NCBI GenBank assembly: GCA_963799775.1
Contig: CAWCYD010000003.1
Location: 1,472,001-1,536,000, forward strand
Length of the DNA stretch: 64,000 nucleotides
DNA from: an uncultured archaeon
GTDB taxonomy: Archaea; Thermoproteota; Nitrososphaeria; Nitrososphaerales; Gagatemarchaeaceae
Direction of reading: 5' to 3'
The notes under the pieces were generated by a model, which searched no databases, was not told the origin of the DNA, and saw only the letters and a program-made list of their open reading frames with translations. A program made the position numbers and the translations under genes. Of the stretch, positions 2,878 to 12,042 are shown piece after piece; position 1 is the stretch's first letter; every line of letters begins with the position of its first letter.

Positions 2878-4278
2878 CTAGAGCTTCACCTGGTGGATGG
2901 GCTTCCCGGCCGCGAGCTCCGCGGCTTCCATTATCGCCTCGGGCAGTGTCGGGTGCGGGTGCATCGTGAGCGCGAGATCCTCCACCGTCGCGCCCATCTC
3001 GATGGCGAGCGCAGCCTCGCTGATGAGGTTCGAGGCCTCGGGACCGACTATCTGGACCCCGACGACCACTCCCGTGTTCGAGTCGGAGACTATCCTCACG
3101 AAGCCGTCGGTCTCTCCCGAGGTAAGCGCTCGTCCGAGAGCTGCGAAGGAGAACCTGCTCCTCTTCACCTGCATCCCGGCCGCGGTGGCTGCGCTCTCCG
3201 TGAGCCCGACCCCGGCGATCTCCGGGTCTGTGAAGATAGCCCACGGGATGCTCTTCCAGTCGGCGGCGCTAGGCTTGCCGGCGATGACCTCGGCAGCGAC
3301 TATGCCCTCTTTCGATGCCTTGTGCGCGAGCAGCGGCTGGCCCCGGACGTCCCCGATGGCGTAGACGCCGGCCACGCTCGTCTTCATCTGCTCGTCGGTG
3401 ATGATGTAGCCCTTGGCGTCTGTCTTGACGCCGAGCTCGCTGAGCCTCATCCCCTGTGTGAGAGGCCCCCTTCCCACGCTGACGAGCACGAGGGTTGCCG
3501 CAATCTCCACGTCCCCGTCTCGCGTCGCGATCTTCGCTCTGACGCCCTTAGCGTCCTTTTGGAGCGAGGTCACTTTAGACTTTAGAAGCAACCGTGCGCC
3601 TCTCTTCTCCAGGTTCCTCTGCGCGAACCGCACGAGGTCGGGCTCTGTGCCGGGGAGGAGCTGGTCCGTGAGCTCGACGATCGTCACCTTGGTCCCGAGC
3701 TTCTGGTAGACGGTCGCGAGTTCTAGCCCGATGTAGCCGCCACCGATTACAAGCATGCTCTCGGGCACCTGCTCGAGAACTAACACTTCGGTCGAACTTA
3801 GGATGACCTTCCCATCGAATTCGATCCCGGGCAGCGGTAGAGCCCGCGAGCCTGTGGCAATAACAACGTTCTTCGTAACGACGTCCTCAATCCCCGAGCT
3901 GGTCGTCACCTTGACTCTCCTTGCGTCGATGACCTCGGCGGTTCCCTTGATGACCACTATCTTATTTGAACGACATAGGTTTGCGACTCCGCTTTCGAGG
4001 GTGGAGACAACGCCGTCCTTCCATCTTTGGAGGGCGGGCAAATCGACCCTGATTCCCTCGGCGATTATCCCAAAAGTAGCTCCCTCTTTCGCTTTCTCGT
4101 AGAGCTTGGTCATTGTGATCAGCGCCTTCGACGGGATGCAGCCCGACGCGACGCAGATTCCGCCTAGCGTTTCCCTTTCGATGAGAATTGTCTTGAGGCC
4201 TAGCTGGGCGCTTCTAATTGCACAAACGTAACCTCCAGGCCCTCCGCCTATTATCGTCACATCGGCGTCCCGCGTCAA
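2878..4278 (-). CDS. lpdA: Dihydrolipoamide dehydrogenase (E3)
   Basis: GGGPGGY, GGICVASGCIPSK redox disulfide, HPHPTLPE. Confidence 0.96.
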   Translation of the reverse strand: MTRDADVTIIGGGPGGYVCAIRSAQLGLKTILIERETLGGICVASGCIPSKALITMTKLYEKAKEGATFGIIAEGIRVDLPALQRWKDGVVSTLESGVANLCRSNKIVVIKGTAEVIDARRVKVTTSSGIEDVVTKNVVIATGSRALPLPGIEFDGKVILSSTEVLVLEQVPESMLVIGGGYIGLELATVYQKLGTKVTIVELTDQLLPGTEPDLVRFAQRNLEKRGARLLLKSKVTSLQKDAKGVRAKIATRDGDVEIAATLVLVSVGRGPLTQGMRLSELGVKTDAKGYIITDEQMKTSVAGVYAIGDVRGQPLLAHKASKEGIVAAEVIAGKPSAADWKSIPWAIFTDPEIAGVGLTESAATAAGMQVKRSRFSFAALGRALTSGETDGFVRIVSDSNTGVVVGVQIVGPEASNLISEAALAIEMGATVEDLALTMHPHPTLPEAIMEAAELAAGKPIHQVKL

Positions 4279-4581
4279 GTTACCGTCTGCGGCGCAGAAA
4301 TTGAATCGCTTAAACCTTGCTCGATGACCCTAGCTTATCGGCTCCTAACCCAATTCCCGGCTCCGAATCTTGTCTTATGAGCCGAACAGAGGTTTTGTCG
4401 AGTTGTCATTCGGCCGAATGCAGCTCACGCTAGACCAAACGAAGACTGGACAGCACCGAAGAGACAACACTCGTCATTTTGTTGGAATCCCTCGACCTTA
4501 ACGACCTCGTCACTCTTCCCGAGAAGTGCCGCTCTTCAGAACATGGAACTTAAGCCCGAAATCAGCAAGAAAAGATTCAAT

Positions 4582-4722
4582 GTGGACGCTGCTCCCACTC
4601 ACAAGAAACGACGCAGACGGCTTGTTCTGGCGGTGGTGATTATTGCCGTGCTGGTAACAGAAGGTTACACAGCCGACTATATGAGAAGGCAAACTGTGGA
4701 CCCAAGACTGGAAGGGCCGTAA
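4582..4722 (+). pseudogene. Truncated signal-anchor ORF (46 aa)
   Basis: VDAAPTHKKRRRRLVLAVVIIAVLVTEG..., then an early stop. Confidence 0.3.
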
Positions 4723-4978
4723 CGGAACGGGTTTTGAGTTTGCTTCCATCGGATCTCTCGATTGGCATCCTACGAGTTCTCGAGGTAAATTGGTTGCCAA
4801 GAGGGTGAAGCTATGATTTTGGACTTTGGCAACTACTTAGCAACCATAACTTGAGCCTTCTTGCCCCGCGTTCTTCCATAATAGAGTCGCCTATTACAGG
4901 GTATATCGTGAAGCATCGACACCCTTAGCAACCATCCGACGCAACGAAAGATGATTGCGGGACGGAATATATCTCTGT

Positions 4979-5809
4979 CTAACCTGCAGCGTCGACTTCG
5001 AAATGCAGAAGCACTGATTGACCCCATTCATCGTCAACGGCCACCGTGTACACTCCTGGGACAAATAGAGTGGTGGAAGGCGGGTGCGTATAACCTGGGG
5101 CGATGATAATTGCGGGGTTCATCTGCGCGGCGCTAGCAGTAAGGTTCCAGTAGCCGGTTGCTGTGTAAGTGTTCGATAGTTGATACGGACCATTTGTCTG
5201 ATTACTTGGTCGAGGGGAAGCAAGGGAGTCTGTAATTCCAGTAACGTTTGCGATCGAGCTTTCTGACTGAAAAATAACATGGTCCATTACGCCTGCGCCG
5301 TCGTAACAGAGCTGGGAGGGAATGAATACATTCGCAATGTTCGATATATTCTCGATTGTGTAGTATCCTTTAAGGACAGCCACGTCGGCAGGAGTGGTCA
5401 GGAAATATACAGTCCTATTGCCTCCGGGATTGCTCACTACATCTGAATTGGTGGCCAAACAATCGGGCCAGAGGGCAACAGGAATACCTCGAAACAACCA
5501 ATGAGCAGATGTTGGGATGCTATTGAGTCGGTCCAGAGTATTGTAGACTGTGACGTTGAATTCGAGAGATTGCCCCACTCTAACTAGCGTCGAATTGATG
5601 GACAACGAAAGTTCGACTCCATTCGAGCCCGTTGTCGAGTTACTTGTTGATAGTTGTGACAATGAAGACATTGTTACTGTGGAGGAATACTCACCACTCG
5701 TCGAACTAGTCGTCGCAGAATAGAGTTGTCCTATTTCGAACCCCACCAAGGCAGTGACGATGACGGCGGCGATAACGCCGGCCATTATCTGTCGTGAATA
5801 CTCTGACAC
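4979..5809 (-). CDS. N-terminally anchored extracellular Ser/Thr-rich protein
   Basis: TM segment IMAGVIAAVIVTALVGF, S/T linker, beta-rich domain ending PGVYTVAVDDEWGQ. Confidence 0.8.
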   Translation of the reverse strand: MSEYSRQIMAGVIAAVIVTALVGFEIGQLYSATTSSTSGEYSSTVTMSSLSQLSTSNSTTGSNGVELSLSINSTLVRVGQSLEFNVTVYNTLDRLNSIPTSAHWLFRGIPVALWPDCLATNSDVVSNPGGNRTVYFLTTPADVAVLKGYYTIENISNIANVFIPSQLCYDGAGVMDHVIFQSESSIANVTGITDSLASPRPSNQTNGPYQLSNTYTATGYWNLTASAAQMNPAIIIAPGYTHPPSTTLFVPGVYTVAVDDEWGQSVLLHFEVDAAG

Positions 5810-5977
5810 ATTTCGTCAATCATGATTTATCGGTCGTGGTTATATTGCTACGTTTTATCACACCCGTTCCTACAAATTTATTCATAATTTATCTTTGATA
5901 TCGATAGTTTCTATCCGAAAACCTATCCATCCGAACCGCTCGAATCCACAGAAACGGAGTAGGGTTGTCAATTCGAT

Positions 5978-6389
5978 TCAGATGCTTTCCCTAAGTGATG
6001 TAGATGTCTGAAATAGCGAAACTGTTAGTGACGCAACCAAGGTCAGAATCGAAAAGACATAGGAACCGTTCATTGCGGCCGGCCTGAGAACGGTCAGAAG
6101 CAGGGCGAGAGACGTCGCCAGAAAAGCAGAGAAAGTTGCCCATAGAGGTATGACTGTTCTTCTAATTCTTATCATGTTTTCGAACAACGTCCTGTCCGCC
6201 GTGAAGCCGTCACTTCCCTCACGAATCAGGCCAGAAAGGAGTAGCTTCTGCAAATGGTATTCGGCTACCGACGAGGAACTCATATTGAGCTCTCTCCTAA
6301 TATCAGACAAATTGATAGGCACCTCGTCTGTAAACGAGACGATAGACCCTAAGTGTGGTTCCTGAAAGAGAGATGCGCTTCGGCGGCAA
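5978..6389 (-). CDS. Membrane-tethered winged-helix protein (frameshift ~6325)
   Basis: LSGTTLRVYRLVYRRG joined to PINLSDIRRELNMSSSSVAEYHLQKLL, then two TM helices. Confidence 0.75.
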
Positions 6390-6457
6390 GCAGTAGTTCC
6401 GGAGCGGTCAGTTAGTAATGAGTTTTGGGTTCGAGTTTGGGGCTATTCAAGCATGTA

Positions 6458-7648
6458 TCAGTAGCCTCCTGCATTCTCATAGTTAATGTCGAAGTCTCCC
6501 GAACTCACGCTTCCCGGGCAGACGTTTACGTTATACGTATTGCCCAGGCAGCTCGCGGAGCCTGCATAAGTGCCATTGTAATCAAGGTAGTACGCGTTAT
6601 CGCTGCTCCCGGCAGCGCCGATCGTAACGAAGTTGTTGTAGTTGGAGTCATAATAGTACGCACCCGAGACTGAAATACTGCCGAAGTCGGGGAGACCGTA
6701 CCCTGGACTGCCGGGAGGCACTTCAGACATATACGTAGAATAATACGTTGAACTTGTGGAGAAACCGCTTGGAGAATTGGCTGAACAACCACTGCTCAAC
6801 GAGTAGTCATAGATGGAGGTAGTATAGGAGGGCGCAGTACTTCCATTGTATGTCGTATCAGCGCCTATTTGGTCGCCCCCACTTGCTGCGGAGCACTCAT
6901 TGGGGGCGCCGGAACCATTGTAGAACTCGTACCAATAGTCATAGTGGTAGTAATGCGAACTATTGCACAACGTGGAACAATATGCATCGGTGCCAGTTTG
7001 AGCGATGTAGCTACCAGTGGGCGACAAACCGACCCACATGGATATGAGGCACCAGTCATTGAGGTAGTCGCTGCAATTGTCCGAGGCCCCGCTGATAGAT
7101 GGAATATACCAATCTGCGCCCACTTCGTTAACAGCAGTGCCGTAGCTGCTGTAGTATTGGTACCCCGCCCATTTTACGCTAGAGGCAACATTAGGACCGG
7201 TTCGCGGGATATCTTGGTACACGTTCGTGCTCAATACAGAAGTTAGGGAAGGATCCTCGGCAACCTGAAGCACATAGGTAGCTCCGTTCGCCCCCTTGAG
7301 GTCATAGTCGACAGTCACTTCGACGATGGATATTGCACAGCTCATGTTCCAAGTTGTGCTGTAGAATACACTATCGAACGATTCTGAGTTGTATTCAGAA
7401 GAATACGATGCAGCAGTTGATGCCGCGAGGTCTTGGGCTGCGGACTGGTTTATGCCCGTCTCTGCAACCCTAGTCTCCCCAGTAAGCAACCTTGGGGGAC
7501 AGGTCGAAGGCGAAGTCGGCCCCTGATTGGATGTGGCCGCGTTTGATAATGGAATCCTTCCAAAGACCAATAGAGCCAGTATTCCGAGCATCACGGCCAC
7601 GTCCAAGTAGGATTTTGAGCTGTGAGGACTTCCTAAATCGAACTTCAT
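6458..7648 (-). CDS. Secreted glutamic peptidase, family G1 (Peptidase_A4-like), with signal peptide and pro-region
   Basis: SSVKWAGY, WYIP, MWVGL, AQTGT (catalytic Gln), WYEFY, GDQI, MSEVP (catalytic Glu), LPDFG. Confidence 0.8.
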   Translation of the reverse strand: MKFDLGSPHSSKSYLDVAVMLGILALLVFGRIPLSNAATSNQGPTSPSTCPPRLLTGETRVAETGINQSAAQDLAASTAASYSSEYNSESFDSVFYSTTWNMSCAISIVEVTVDYDLKGANGATYVLQVAEDPSLTSVLSTNVYQDIPRTGPNVASSVKWAGYQYYSSYGTAVNEVGADWYIPSISGASDNCSDYLNDWCLISMWVGLSPTGSYIAQTGTDAYCSTLCNSSHYYHYDYWYEFYNGSGAPNECSAASGGDQIGADTTYNGSTAPSYTTSIYDYSLSSGCSANSPSGFSTSSTYYSTYMSEVPPGSPGYGLPDFGSISVSGAYYYDSNYNNFVTIGAAGSSDNAYYLDYNGTYAGSASCLGNTYNVNVCPGSVSSGDFDINYENAGGY

Positions 7649-7698
7649 ATTCCTTCTCTCACCATTTCTGGCGTGGTTTCTTCGTATTTATGCCCTGA

Positions 7699-7887
7699 TT
7701 GCAATTGCGTATGTAATTACATGGTAGAAGCCTACAGAACCCGATTCCATCTTCACGGCTCCTCCTCAACTTGATGCCTCTTGAGCATATGGTCGATCAT
7801 GTCAAGCGTCGATTGATTCCTTATGCTGAACCTGTAGAGCTTTCGCTTCGTCTTCCCGCTCTCCGTTTCCCTTTGCTCTATCAATCC
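7699..7887. repeat. 189-bp imperfect direct repeat, copy 1 (3' end of EarA-like gene plus operator region)
   Basis: Aligns without gaps to 9765-9953; first ~43 bp identical. Confidence 0.95.
7701..7722. promoter_or_regulatory. Twin palindromes GCAATTGC and ATGTAATTACAT, putative activator site
   Basis: Perfect 8-bp and 12-bp palindromes just upstream of a TATA-like ATAAATA (minus strand) for the peptidase at 7648. Confidence 0.65.
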
Positions 7888-7890
7888 CAT
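7753..7890 (-). pseudogene. Truncated EarA-like paralog (C-terminal 45 aa, open frame)
   Basis: MGLIEQRETESGKTKRKLYRFSIRNQSTLDMIDHMLKRHQVEEEP matches the C-terminus of 9819-10172. Confidence 0.85.
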
Positions 7891-7900
7891 TGCTCTGAAT

Positions 7901-8449
7901 CTAAGGAGAAAAAACTCCCGCGACGGCTAGGCATCCATTGGATGGCGTCTCCTGTAGGCTAATGCAACCGGAGAAACTCTCACCCACTGTAGGGATGACG
8001 GAGCCTCCACCAAATGCATCCGAAGGAAACGACGCAATAAGTGTTGCATTGCTTCCATCATTTGGTATGTAGTTCGCAGGTGTCACCAGGCATCCCGTCG
8101 CTGCACTTGTCGCCGAGTTGTCACTACTGCCATAACGAATCACCAAGCATGAGAGTCCGGTGTAAATCGTGACCGGTCCTGTGAGAGGTTGTGAGACAGG
8201 TGAGGATACACTCACAATGAAAAAGCTGCAGGTCTTGTTGCTTAGACTACATCCATGTGAGTACACCCCGTAAGAAGGAGCGACATCCACCGTAGTCACA
8301 CTGGGTGGAATCGAGATCGAAGTTGACACAGTGGTAGAAGTGACTGTCTTCATGGAAACTCCTGTGGTCAACGCGACAGACAAAGCGAGCACTGCTCCTA
8401 TTATTATTCCAACAACCAACATCCCCAAGCTTGACTTTTCGAGTCTCAA
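7901..8449 (-). CDS. Membrane-anchored, Cys-containing extracellular protein
   Basis: N-terminal TM, Thr/Ser linker, six Cys. Confidence 0.75.
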   Translation of the reverse strand: MRLEKSSLGMLVVGIIIGAVLALSVALTTGVSMKTVTSTTVSTSISIPPSVTTVDVAPSYGVYSHGCSLSNKTCSFFIVSVSSPVSQPLTGPVTIYTGLSCLVIRYGSSDNSATSAATGCLVTPANYIPNDGSNATLIASFPSDAFGGGSVIPTVGESFSGCISLQETPSNGCLAVAGVFSP

Positions 8450-8535
8450 TTTTGATAGACCTTAGCATCTCTAGGAAGGATTTGATTAAGTATTACGCGA
8501 ATCTGTAACTCGCTCGAATCGCGCCGGTTGCCCTT

Positions 8536-9727
8536 CTAAGTACTACTGGAATACGTCACAGAGAAGGTACCGTAACTATACCCCGTGGGTTCAGTCATGG
8601 TAGAGGTTGTTGTAGTTCCGAAGCCGTCGTCCATGTTACTACCTAGTCCCCAGTTGTTGAGGTAATTGGGATACTGGTCAAGTTTCAATCCGCTCCCTGC
8701 TGCCATCTCAAGATCGGTGAATGTAACCGACGAGAAATTAGCCAACTCCTGGTTGCCATTGTGCGGATTTTCGACCACCGTGTCCGCGTAATGCGGCGCA
8801 CCCTCCGGACTATAGTTGTCGTTTGTGCACGCTTCATTGTTGGTCATATCCCTTACGACTACATCGTAATTGCTTCCAGACAAACCCATCTGCGAGTTCG
8901 ACCCAACCTGAGCATAGATATGGTCGCCTTGGCTTATTGATGTTGTGCCGCAAAATTGCATGCCACTATCGGAGTGAGGGTAATAGACGTGTTCAGTGAA
9001 CGCAGAGTAGGTCTTTACGCAGACAAGTGCGGTGCAGGTAATATTCCCTTGTATGCCGCCTTGAATAAGAACGTTGGTACCTGACCAAGGAATATACCCA
9101 ATGTACGTATTGTTCTGCAAACCAGTCCACACAACCACCAGGCACTGTGTTGAGCTGTCGGGGCCGCTTGTTCTGCAGTTCGTTGACCCCGTGTTAAGGG
9201 GAGGAGTAGTCCAATATGCGGCGCTATAGGTCACATCCTCACCGGTTGGTGTAGAGGCGTTTGCCACATAGTATCCGCTATTGAATTTGACAGTGGTAAG
9301 AGAAATGCCGGCGGTTGAATACCCATGTCTGGTAACGCTGTATATTACCCCCAATACGGGATTCACTGCCATTGTAAGGATGTAAAGTGGCTGACCGTCC
9401 TTTTGAAGCAGGAAATTGACAGCTGCATCCCGCCAGGTGACAGTACAGTTTGTTGGATTCGTTATCCAGTCATTGTCAAAACCAGTAAATGATGAATTAT
9501 AACCAGAAACCTCGTTTCTATAATCTGCAGAACTTGTTGCAAAATTCTGAACAGATGAGGAACTGATCGTACCTTGACCCCATCTCTGTCGCGAGTTTGA
9601 GAGACGTGCATGAAGTTGAGGTAGTTGCAGCAACTCCTGATGACGCTAGAATCGCGACGGGCGAAATCACCAAGAGAAAGAGCAATGAAAGAGCAGCCGA
9701 GCCGCTTCCAACAGCCCAGATTTTCAT
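8536..9727 (-). CDS. Second secreted G1-family glutamic peptidase (frameshift ~9575)
   Basis: Signal peptide MKIWAVGSGSAALSLLFLLVISP in ORF 9518-9727; body has NSGYY, YWTTP, VWTGL, LIQGG, GDHI, VVENP, LANFSSVTF. Confidence 0.75.
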
Positions 9728-9764
9728 ACATTGTTCTTGTGGGGATTCTGTATATAATATCTAG

Positions 9765-9953
9765 TTGCAATTGCGTATGTAATTACATGGTAGAAGCCTA
9801 CAGAACCAGACTCCATCTTCACGGCTCCTCCTCAACTTGATACCTCTTGAGAATGTGGTCAATCATGTCAAGCGTCGATTGATTCTGTGCGCTAAACCTG
9901 TAGGCCCTTCGCTTCGTCTTCCCGCTCCCTGTTTCCCTTTGCTCTATCAATCC
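9765..9953. repeat. 189-bp imperfect direct repeat, copy 2
   Basis: Matches 7699-7887. Confidence 0.95.
9767..9788. promoter_or_regulatory. Twin palindromes GCAATTGC and ATGTAATTACAT, second copy
   Basis: Identical to 7701-7722; minus-strand TTATATA box follows, ~25 bp before ATG 9727. Confidence 0.65.
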
Positions 9954-10172
9954 TAGGCTCAGCAGGGATAGCTCGGGATTGTACCTTCCTCGCGATCCTC
10001 GGATGACTCCCGACACTTGACCCAGGGGCAATTTCACGATACTAGAGACCTCCGCCTGCGCAAGCCAGCTGCTCGGTCTTTTCCGAAACACCTGGAGCAC
10101 TACGCGCCTGTCTCGACTACTAAGAGCCTCCCTCAGTCTCGATAACCTGATGTCCCGCTCATCAGATGTCAC
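9819..10172 (-). CDS. EarA/DUF1495-like winged-helix transcription factor
   Basis: ALSSRDRRVVL ... VSGVIRGSRGRYNPELSLLSLGLIE resembles the family signature RGxxxRYxxxxSLxxLGLVE. Confidence 0.72.
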   Translation of the reverse strand: MTSDERDIRLSRLREALSSRDRRVVLQVFRKRPSSWLAQAEVSSIVKLPLGQVSGVIRGSRGRYNPELSLLSLGLIEQRETGSGKTKRRAYRFSAQNQSTLDMIDHILKRYQVEEEP

Positions 10173-10475
10173 GATGCTTCAGTCATGCGGAGTGTTTTTG
10201 GGTCGGGGAGATATTTGCGCATTTGAGCATTCTCACGAAAATTGCTGTGTAATTTTCTTCTAATATCCAAGATTTTGACTTCTTCCACTCCCCGGCATGA
10301 CCAGTCAGGGAAGTGAACGCGGCGAGTCACATCCCCTAAGAAGGAAATCTGAACTCCACTTGCCATGGTCGACTAGCGGTTGCGTCCTCGCTGAGAGGGG
10401 TCGACCAAGCTCGAATTTGGTTGTTCTTTTGACCTGTCGGTGGATAAAGGGGGCTGTCAAGCACCGGGTGATGAA

Positions 10476-10604
10476 ATGAAGGTTCTGCTTGTCGCGGTAG
10501 TAGCGATTGCCTTGATTCTGCTTCCGTCCGTCTTTTGCCGCCTTGCACAAGGAAATGTTCTAAGGTATAGAACTATTAAGATAAATCCAGCAATGACAGG
10601 ATGA
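10476..10604 (+). CDS. Small signal-peptide-like ORF (42 aa) or gene remnant
   Basis: GGTGA RBS; MKVLLVAVVAIALILLPSVFC... Confidence 0.35.
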   Translation: MKVLLVAVVAIALILLPSVFCRLAQGNVLRYRTIKINPAMTG

Positions 10605-10608
10605 TAAC

Positions 10609-11157
10609 ATGCTGTCCCAGCACAATCGCGACAAGACCATTCCTATCGCCATTGTTGTTATCGCCGCTCTCATAGTTGGTGCAGTAAGCCTTGTCTTGCT
10701 TGCCCCACAGTCAAACAGATCAGCGTCATCCAGCTCGTCAACTACGGGCACAAGCTATGCGACGTGCGCGGTAAACTTCATGGGCAATGGCACATTCCTG
10801 CAAATCATCTCGGAATCGACTCAACAACCACTGACGGGCGTCTCGCTTCATGTGTCACCTGTGGCTAACGGTGACTGTTACGTTGCACAGAATCCTGCCA
10901 CGTACAACACGAACTCGTCTGGATGGGTTTCTCTGGGAGCCCTACCAGGTGGCGCCCACTTTCTGGTGTCGTTGGAATATGCAGGCACAAGCTACAACTT
11001 CTCGATACCGCAGCAATCCCTCGATGTATCTTATGCTACGCTCAGACTGCCTTCGGGAAACCTCAGTGTGACATTGTGCCTGACACTCGATACACCCCCC
11101 AGCTTTGAACCCTACAATCAGACGGGAATCGTTTCGACAACCACTGGGGTGAAGTGA
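10609..11157 (+). CDS. Membrane-anchored extracellular protein, Ig-like beta domain
   Basis: TM segment, Ser-rich linker, QPLTGVSL...TNSSGWV. Confidence 0.75.
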   Translation: MLSQHNRDKTIPIAIVVIAALIVGAVSLVLLAPQSNRSASSSSSTTGTSYATCAVNFMGNGTFLQIISESTQQPLTGVSLHVSPVANGDCYVAQNPATYNTNSSGWVSLGALPGGAHFLVSLEYAGTSYNFSIPQQSLDVSYATLRLPSGNLSVTLCLTLDTPPSFEPYNQTGIVSTTTGVK

Positions 11158-11237
11158 AGTTTCTGCTCATTATTGGAATGGCGATTCTCTCGGTACGAGC
11201 TGACATGAGGTGAATCTCAGACGATAATCTCTAGTGA

Positions 11238-11597
11238 CTAGCCGAGCTTGGCTTCAATTCTTTCCATCATTGCCCTGATGTCGGCGATGTCCCGCCCTTG
11301 ATTCAAGAGGGCCACGGCCACGACCTCCCGTCTGACTTCTCTGACCTCGCCGATGATTCTGTCCATTCCGCTCTCAATCCCTCCGATCAGTTTGTCCGAC
11401 CTATAGACTCCCATGTCAAGCTTCCCCATTCCTTTCTCGAGGTGCTCTATTCCCTTCTCCATTCTTGACATGCTGATGCCCCGCCGGTGCAGTAGGAGCA
11501 CAGTCAGGTCTTGTGAGGTCAACTTCTTTTTCGAGGCTATCCTCTGAACGCCTTTGGAGATGCGGTCCGAAACCGGTTCTTCTTTCAAGTCTGCCAT
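11238..11597 (-). CDS. Coiled-coil protein (paREP15-like)
   Basis: KKLTSQDLTVLLL followed by heptad repeats. Confidence 0.6.
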   Translation of the reverse strand: MADLKEEPVSDRISKGVQRIASKKKLTSQDLTVLLLHRRGISMSRMEKGIEHLEKGMGKLDMGVYRSDKLIGGIESGMDRIIGEVREVRREVVAVALLNQGRDIADIRAMMERIEAKLG

Positions 11598-11607
11598 CTT
11601 CCCGCGC

Positions 11608-11979
11608 CTACCCTCGCGTGAAAGCGTATTCGATGAATCTTGCAGGTTCTAGCTTCTGCGTCACTGGGTTGACCTTCAACCTGAAAATCTCGAGCGTTGT
11701 GAGACCCAAGAGCGGTTCCTCGCCATCTGGCCCAATCATTAGAGGAATTGTGTTCTCGAATCCATTTAGTTCCGCGACGGCTTCAGATACTTCACGTTCA
11801 ATGACCCTCCCATCAGCCAACTCTACTTCGGCCTTGTAGCGGGATTTGATGCCGATCTTTGTTGCTGCGGACGAAGGTATCTTCGTCAGCGTCGAACCCG
11901 TATCGACGAGCATCTCGATTTCGGCGTCGCCTTTTGGACCGAGAAGTCGCAGAGAAACGCGTGTCTCGCCCATCTTCAT
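11608..11979 (-). CDS. Retropepsin-like (clan AA) aspartic protease
   Basis: LVDTGST, LADGR, LLGLTTLE. Confidence 0.88.
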   Translation of the reverse strand: MKMGETRVSLRLLGPKGDAEIEMLVDTGSTLTKIPSSAATKIGIKSRYKAEVELADGRVIEREVSEAVAELNGFENTIPLMIGPDGEEPLLGLTTLEIFRLKVNPVTQKLEPARFIEYAFTRG

Positions 11980-12042
11980 TATCCGCGTAGAAGATTGACG
12001 GCTGATATAAGCGACTCCGTCGGAACTACACCGCTACAGCCG

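Follow-up and report, generated by a model that had tools for sequence, protein, structure and literature searches.

An EarA-family protein as candidate activator of secreted G1 peptidase genes through a palindromic promoter element in an apparent soil Nitrososphaerota archaeon

In a 64-kb stretch of contig CAWCYD010000003.1 (here called the window), part of an archaeal genome of 2.47 Mb that is assembled in 3 contigs and 82% complete, we analyzed a locus in which a gene for a small winged helix-turn-helix (wHTH) protein of the EarA family precedes two genes for secreted G1 peptidases, peptidase A and peptidase B. We propose that this 117-aa wHTH protein is a locus-specific transcription factor, which most likely binds a composite element, CATGTAATTACATA-C-GCAATTGC, that abuts the B recognition element (BRE) and TATA box of both peptidase genes. 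The bound protein would probably help TFB and TBP onto non-consensus promoters and thus serve as an activator. The wHTH gene itself is preceded by a partial copy of the element, which would provide for autoregulation, and peptidase B would have been put under the same control by copying a 190-nt piece, containing the 3' end of the regulator gene and the element, in front of it. Since the same element precedes two peptidase genes beside the regulator, the regulator most likely controls them. Binding, the sign of regulation, and the existence of an inducing signal are what we infer here, and the probability that the EarA-family protein binds the element and activates is, in our estimate, about 0.5.

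When compared with the Pfam family EarA (PF07381, formerly DUF1495), the wHTH protein matched profile positions 7 to 80 of 90 with 32.5 bits (cut-off, 22; E = 7.5e-8), in agreement with an earlier sequence-only reading of this DNA that had noted the resemblance. A six-frame search of the genome likewise found the PF07381 match at this gene, and no Pfam family other than EarA was matched by the protein at an E value of 0.1 or less. By its profile match, it is a member of the Pfam EarA family, of which there are several paralogues per genome. Single-sequence searches of the PDB with the wHTH protein and with peptidase B yielded chance matches only. Prediction of a wHTH homodimer returned a score of 0.00 against a mark of 0.42, which gave no answer.

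Both peptidase genes were matched by Peptidase_A4 (PF01828) in the six-frame search, with 43.3 bits for peptidase B and 38.8 bits for peptidase A (cut-off, 22.3). Unlike this search, hmmscan of the two proteins reported no Peptidase_A4 at an E value of 0.1 or less, probably because the peptidases are compositionally biased. When 1.84 billion cluster representatives were searched exhaustively by HMMER with peptidase B, only 64 were found at E <= 1e-3, and a word-indexed homologue search found only peptidase B itself. Forty of the 64 representatives, chosen for length, were aligned with peptidase A to give a family alignment of 41 members, 18 of which individually match PF01828 in hmmscan. The resulting profile matches aspergillopepsin II (1y43_B, E = 4e-11), and its IAQTG and FxGE motifs align on ILQTG and EWIVE, which contain the catalytic Gln and Glu. 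The columns of this dyad hold Gln in 40 and Glu in all 41 members, corresponding to Q217 and E309 of peptidase B and to Q191 and E288 of peptidase A. For peptidase B, a structure predicted with AlphaFold2 (pLDDT 82.5) was compared with the PDB using Foldseek. The top match was scytalidoglutamic peptidase (2ifr_A, E = 2.4e-9, TMt 0.81), 1y43_B reached a TMt of 0.84, and the top five matches were all G1 peptidases (TMt 0.76 to 0.84). Judged by profile and dyad residues, both proteins are G1/eqolisin-like, as the sequence-only reading had assigned them, and peptidase B has the eqolisin fold in its predicted structure.

Members of the G1/eqolisin family occur in archaea, bacteria, and fungi (PMC6154417 and PMC3009609). 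Fold and Gln/Glu dyad are shared with scytalidoglutamic peptidase and aspergillopepsin II, whereas the proteins of this locus differ from known G1 peptidases in being divergent, biased toward Ser, Thr, Tyr, and Gly, and missed by hmmscan, and in having an anchor at the N terminus and an additional domain of ~150 aa, which in peptidase B precedes the catalytic domain. Two frames encode peptidase A, a signal-peptide open reading frame (ORF) at 9518-9727 and a main ORF at 8536-9633. Judging by a paralogue with an uninterrupted frame, C3:1408159-1409442, the switch occurs at or close to a C4/G4 run (9578-9581). Peptidase A may be a pseudogene or reflect an assembly error. This paralogue (L009), the closest to peptidase A with 58% identity, has Arg instead of the catalytic Gln (VLVRGG), carries the palindrome ACTGTAATACAGT ~50 nt upstream of the expected start, and has no start codon where one is expected. 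Taken with the split of peptidase A, this missing start may, in a 3-contig genome that is 82% complete, indicate long-read homopolymer errors rather than pseudogenes.

The sequence TATGTAATTACATG occurs at 9776-9789 and 7710-7723, its only two copies in the window, and in a shuffled-sequence control 0/100 reached four strand-wise matches to it. A scan of the whole genome for TATGTAATTACATG found the two locus copies only, and ATGTA-N2-TACAT was restricted to the same two sites. The genome-wide motif scan suggested in the sequence-only reading thus recovered both sites but added no further one in 2.47 Mb, and a search for the element with up to 2 mismatches found no other site before a plausible target in the genome. 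On the coding strand, CATGTAATTACATA is followed by C, the perfect palindrome GCAATTGC, 6 nt, and an A/T-rich box. The element can be described as two adjacent GYAATTRC-type palindromes, the first of which contains the EarA hexamer TACATA, a rare sequence with an intergenic frequency of 0.012 per 100 nt in this genome. Palindrome 2 sits between palindrome 1 and the BRE/TATA sequences, with its end 6 nt from the TATA-like box, and the center of palindrome 1 is located ~27 to 28 nt upstream of the center of that box in both copies. The earlier description of two identical operators upstream of TATA boxes therefore stood, with a weaker box in front of peptidase B. We infer promoters and transcription start sites from our reading of the sequence. 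The center of the TATA-like box is ~28 nt from the ATG of peptidase A, suggesting a leaderless or near-leaderless mRNA, and ~40 nt from that of peptidase B, suggesting a short leader, in which GGTGAG precedes the start codon at 7648.

A looser form of the element, AATTACA-N1-4-GCAATT, was found at 3 places in the 2.47 Mb, namely, the two peptidase promoters and the region upstream of the wHTH gene, all in one orientation. In a generic control, 5 of 2,602 other upstream regions reached the local-alignment score of this third copy against the 27-nt operator core, and 3 of 796 did so when the control was limited to regions of similar GC content. The partial copy upstream of the wHTH gene suggests autoregulation.

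A gapless comparison at an offset of 2,066 nt revealed one 190-nt repeat (7699-7888 = 9765-9954), which consists of the 3'-terminal 147 nt of the wHTH gene and 43 intergenic nucleotides. Its end coincides exactly with the promoter-side edge of palindrome 2, and the TATA boxes lie outside it. The copied 3' fragment of the wHTH gene matches regulator residues 69 to 117 with 76% amino acid identity (70.1 bits in a tblastn-type search). The two full sites are identical because both are inside this one duplicated segment; consequently, they represent one observation and not independent evidence, and the duplication of the operator, which the sequence-only reading had counted as support, cannot be used in that way. 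Between the copies, 0 differences were found in the 43 intergenic nucleotides versus 16 in the 147-nt gene fragment. At the fragment's rate, the chance of 43 unchanged positions is 0.89^43, or ~0.007, by arithmetic done post hoc. It is conceivable that the repeat is a footprint of recent segmental duplication, gene conversion, or recombination of a mobile cassette and plays no role in transcription. This would be in line with the location of both sites in a single repeat, one boundary of which is the edge of palindrome 2, with the low GC content of the locus (47 to 52% across ~4000-12000, compared to ~60% in the flanks and 59% in the whole genome), and with the transposase and integrase genes of a homologous island in another genome of the genus, G017. 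The lack of intergenic differences between the copies argues otherwise, as do the third, partial copy outside the repeat, the lack of any match to the element in viral contigs, and the level of conservation in an orthologous contig described below. We consider a mere footprint very unlikely.

Among 60 relatives that were searched, 22 of them of the genus, no wHTH protein was closer than 39% identity, and the composite element, with up to 3 mismatches allowed, was absent from all 80 other genomes of the family that were searched. Related-locus searches provided no relative for the wHTH protein in metagenomes or for peptidase A and its alignment in genomes. A profile search of metagenomes gave wHTH homologues with 78%, 64%, and 59% identity. 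The 64% homologue was placed on a 1,458-nt metagenome contig, L065; the related-locus search with P0097 was the sole one to give this orthologous contig. On L065, the 3' end of the regulator gene is followed by CCATGCAATTACATATGCAATTGCAC, a peptidase-B-type TATA box, a leader, and the first four codons of the next gene (MKFD). In the block that begins with the stop codon and extends through the palindromes, 46 to 47 of 53 positions (87 to 89%) are identical between the window copies and L065, whereas in the adjacent coding DNA the number is 93 to 96 of 139 (67 to 69%). In the remaining promoter, copy B and L065 agree at 33 of 48 positions. The element is under constraint and tied to the lineage of the wHTH regulator.

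The pairing of regulator and peptidase recurs within the genus. PF07381 was matched above cut-off at 10 places in 23 genomes, and an A4-like gene lies directly downstream, on the same strand, at 5 of them in default-scored searches. These are the locus of the window; a locus in G018, where the triad is repeated with homologues of peptidase A (7.5e-65) and then of the 182-aa protein that follows it here (7.6e-25); two loci in G017, at 89 kb and 100 kb; and C3:1740704 in the own genome, whose downstream protein matches peptidase A (1e-19) and did not reach PF01828. A sixth pairing, in G017 at 79 kb, involves a match to peptidase B that appears only with composition correction off. The synteny of EarA homologues with peptidase genes, put forward for checking in the sequence-only reading, was therefore found at 5 to 6 of the 10 places. 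The other 4 EarA-family genes are followed by genes for different proteins with hydrophobic N termini, and three regulators of G017 contain a stop codon. The link between the regulator and secreted proteins is real in this genus. In the order, PF07381 was found in 6 of 151 genomes, and its pairing with a peptidase is gone outside the genus. The peptidase-B family is present in 49 of 401 genomes of the class, a count that includes the unpublished G400, G283, and G438.

It should be noted that a number of results weigh against the proposed activation. The effective sample is one duplication (n = 1), a partial site, and one orthologue. The third copy was noticed by eye first, which is why the generic control of upstream regions was run afterward. 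Palindromes with arms of at least 6 nt occur in 402 of 1,287 intergenic regions of the genome (31%), so that the presence of palindromes in other cassettes proves nothing, and the intergenic sequences of the other cassettes of the genus differ from the element. EarA-like frames were found beside 0 of the best 30 peptidase-B-family loci of the class, one of which is that of the own genome; the peptidase family thus does not generally need the regulator. Conservation in L065 extends over the whole 53-nt block and not the palindromes alone, and the product of the downstream gene is a Ser/Thr-rich secreted protein of 250 aa rather than a peptidase. Furthermore, peptidase A is frameshifted as assembled, and an element upstream of the BRE is compatible with repression as well.

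The cargo of L065 indicates that the conserved unit comprises regulator, element, and promoter, with a varying gene behind them. Its homologue in the own genome (C3:1767800, 1.9e-97) lacks such an element. Retention of the motif at orthologues, to which the sequence-only reading had pointed, was thus seen at the one orthologous locus found for the element itself and not for the gene that follows it. Similarly, the claim that regulator and site control a secreted acid-protease and surface-protein module retains its link between regulator and secreted proteins and loses the peptidase-specific wiring. The wiring would thus be to secreted cargo in general.

If the element is a real regulatory site, the wHTH protein could also act as a repressor or dual regulator that keeps the peptidase promoters off until a signal arrives. 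The evidence for binding, i.e., the constraint seen in the duplication, the third copy, and L065, is common to both possibilities. Palindrome 2 is only 6 nt from the TATA-like box, where a bound dimer could occlude the BRE, and in the closest paralogue of peptidase A, ACTGTAATACAGT lies downstream of the TATA-like AAATATATTT, a repressor-like position. In contrast, the family member that has been characterized, EarA, activates transcription from a site directly upstream of the BRE (PMC5512572). The sequences at the BRE position, AACTAG in one case and ATCAGGG with the weak box CATAAATA in the other, look non-consensus, which would fit dependence on an activator. Repression appears to us rather improbable.

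Alternatively, the element may be functional and bound by another protein, either the HTH protein encoded at 5978-6322 or a global regulator, the EarA-family gene being merely linked to it in the cassette. This second HTH gene is directly downstream of peptidase B (HTH_20 match of 19.5 bits, weak and below cut-off), and homologues of its product are carried along in these same islands, both in G017 (7.5e-45) and in the own genome. Sites of the form TGTA-N0-4-TACA number 33 in the genome. Nine have a 1- to 2-nt A/T spacer and four of these nine are intergenic, three of them preceding A4-like genes (the two locus sites and ACTGTAATACAGT in front of the peptidase A paralogue). In G017, two genes, one A4-like and the other for a different secreted protein, have CACTTGTATTACA ~20 nt upstream of their TATA boxes. 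Related TGTA-T-TACA motifs are located in front of TATA boxes at secreted-protein genes without a neighboring EarA-like gene (L059 and L064 of G017; the paralogue at C3:1409456). Such looser sites may point to a broader class of motifs at promoters of secreted proteins and would also allow for a binding protein different from the wHTH protein. However, the composite element was found only alongside the wHTH orthologue group (own genome and L065), a partial copy lies upstream of the wHTH gene itself, and the element contains the hexamer known for the EarA family. We therefore regard a different binder as unlikely, and binding by the EarA-family protein as the preferred reading.

Two further sets of intergenic sequences were observed. 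Sequences of the type ATGTAATTACAT(A/T) recur in intergenic regions, either repeated or orthologous, that are not beside peptidase genes, in G017 (L060 2467, L061 2562, and L062 2479), in G008 (L063 2540), and in the own genome (C2:336883). The three copies in G017 share their flanks and may represent a repeated element. Two paralogues of the peptidase-B type, C3:1393200-1394378 and C3:1816444-1817643, have no regulator beside them and have in common an upstream CTACGTA-N7-8-TTCAT, located ~25 to 30 nt ahead of the TATA-like box of each.

EarA (MMP1718 of Methanococcus maripaludis, with a homologue in Pyrococcus furiosus) resembles the protein studied here in being a small single-domain winged-helix protein matched by PF07381. 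The candidate site of the locus resembles EarA sites in that it contains TACATA immediately upstream of the BRE/TATA sequences. In other respects the two differ. EarA hosts are euryarchaeal and the host here is apparently a member of Nitrososphaerota; EarA is an archaellum regulator, whereas the predicted targets here are genes for secreted peptidases and surface proteins; the EarA site consists of four direct hexamers, whereas the element is an inverted repeat with a second palindrome; and several paralogues per genome are present here. The distribution of EarA was reportedly treated by Ding et al. in Microbiology in 2017. Archaellin (PF01917) had 0 matches in the own genome, 82% complete; the sequence-only reading had stated that the window contains no archaellum genes. 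The gene is not near arl or che genes either, its neighbors encoding secreted proteins and peptidases, so it does not have the setting of an archaellum regulator. TACATA hexamers immediately upstream of BRE/TATA are described for Methanococcus (PMC5512572 and PMC10665913). A review (PMC10117864) describes earA homologues as widespread in euryarchaeotes, always beside a methyltransferase gene and often near arl/che genes. By comparison, no methyltransferase family was matched in the nine neighboring ORFs scanned here (4979-11979), and the neighbor expected of an EarA functional orthologue was thus not found among them. A mechanistic likeness, which we draw from geometry, exists to Ptr2 and TFB-RF1, recruiters of TBP and TFB that belong to different protein families: in each case the site is immediately upstream of the BRE of a weak core promoter (PMC5512572).

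Very few archaeal activators have both a known site and a known target. In the literature, we found no characterized activator for uncultured soil Nitrososphaerota or for archaeal extracellular proteases, and among the matches listed no report tied the EarA family to Thaumarchaeota, Nitrososphaer-, or glutamic peptidase. The locus offers a compact triple of a 117-aa regulator, a conserved element of 27 to 43 bp, and two peptidase promoters plus the regulator's own. If our proposal is true, the EarA family would be extended beyond motility and beyond Euryarchaeota, and there would be a handle on how archaea of acid soils control protein scavenging. More tentatively, and with considerable doubt, EarA proteins of soil Nitrososphaerota that do not oxidize ammonia might form portable cassettes of regulator, TACATA-type operator, and promoter that are copied before changing secreted cargo, such as acid G1 peptidases and surface proteins. 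A preference for TACAT-like half-sites might then be conserved across archaeal phyla, and the archaellum role in euryarchaeotes might be one specialization of an older, general family of upstream activators.

The gene order and coordinates of the sequence-only reading were confirmed (Table 1). Every gene of the locus is on the minus strand, and the order of transcription is wHTH gene, peptidase A, 182-aa protein, wHTH fragment, and peptidase B, with a 91-nt spacer between the wHTH gene and peptidase A. The 182-aa protein had no Pfam or NCBIfam match, and an NCBIfam scan of the core genes yielded no match.

Table 1. Features of the locus, in positions of the window
Feature	Position	Strand	Remarks
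EarA-family wHTH regulator	9819-10172	minus	117 aa, GTG start; PF07381 match
Peptidase A, G1/eqolisin-like, secreted	8536-9727	minus	ATG at 9727; PF01828 match at 8683-9246 in the six-frame search
Ser/Thr-rich protein with N-terminal hydrophobic membrane anchor	7901-8449	minus	182 aa
wHTH gene 3' fragment	7753-7890	minus	138 nt; open 45-codon frame from ATG
Peptidase B, G1/eqolisin-like, secreted	6458-7648	minus	396 aa, ATG at 7648; PF01828 match in the six-frame search
Small HTH protein, C-terminal half hydrophobic	5978-6322	minus	downstream of peptidase B
Further secreted protein	4979-5809	minus	downstream of the HTH protein at 5978-6322
Composite element A	9765-9807	minus	43 nt; palindrome 1, CATGTAATTACATA, 9776-9789; palindrome 2, GCAATTGC, 9767-9774
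Composite element B	7699-7741	minus	same as element A; palindrome 1, 7710-7723; palindrome 2, 7701-7708
TATA-like box of peptidase A, ATATTATATA	9751-9760	minus	by reading the sequence; putative promoter
Weaker TATA-like box of peptidase B, CATAAATA	7685-7692	minus	by reading the sequence; putative promoter
Partial third copy of the element, AATTACACAGCAATT	10240-10254	minus	68-82 nt upstream of the wHTH GTG; candidate autoregulatory site

The host appears to be a soil archaeon of Nitrososphaerota. Its genome encodes topoisomerase IB (543-aa frame, 226.7 bits), a hallmark of Thaumarchaeota among prokaryotes according to PMC4824112. The genes neighboring homologous loci are archaeal (SRP54, Pus10, aIF5A, and eIF-1A), one homologue of the wHTH protein is named as coming from a Nitrososphaerota archaeon, and the sequencing runs that contain this DNA are labeled soil metagenome. 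Archaeal AmoA was not found in the own genome, a weak result since the control also gave no match; the host is possibly not an ammonia oxidizer.

Additional observations were made on the surroundings of the locus and on other cassettes. The HTH protein at 5978-6322 is possibly a membrane-bound transcription factor, and its homologue in G017 is 23 residues longer at the N terminus, so that the copy in the window may be truncated. At the edge of the low-GC island, 11608-11979 on the minus strand encodes a 123-aa retropepsin-like aspartic protease of clan AA with a DTGS motif (TIGR03698, 49.6 bits, below cut-off). An island of ~30 kb in G017 (G017:C7:72000-103300; L026 and L027) is full of secreted-protein genes and partly homologous to the low-GC island of the window; its genes include four of the EarA family, three of which are interrupted by stop codons, one HTH_20-like gene, one for a DDE transposase, and, at the end of the island, one for a phage-type integrase. 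A palindrome shared by the EarA-like cassettes of the genus was considered and rejected, given that the sequences differ and that such palindromes are as frequent as stated above. A second lineage of EarA-like cassettes, represented at L022 5125-5248, L026 5258-5470, L028 5441-5563, G017:C7:89277-89492, and 99900-100600, shares intergenic TTATCAG direct repeats that flank CAGTTGA-TTAC-TCAACTG ahead of a T-rich box.

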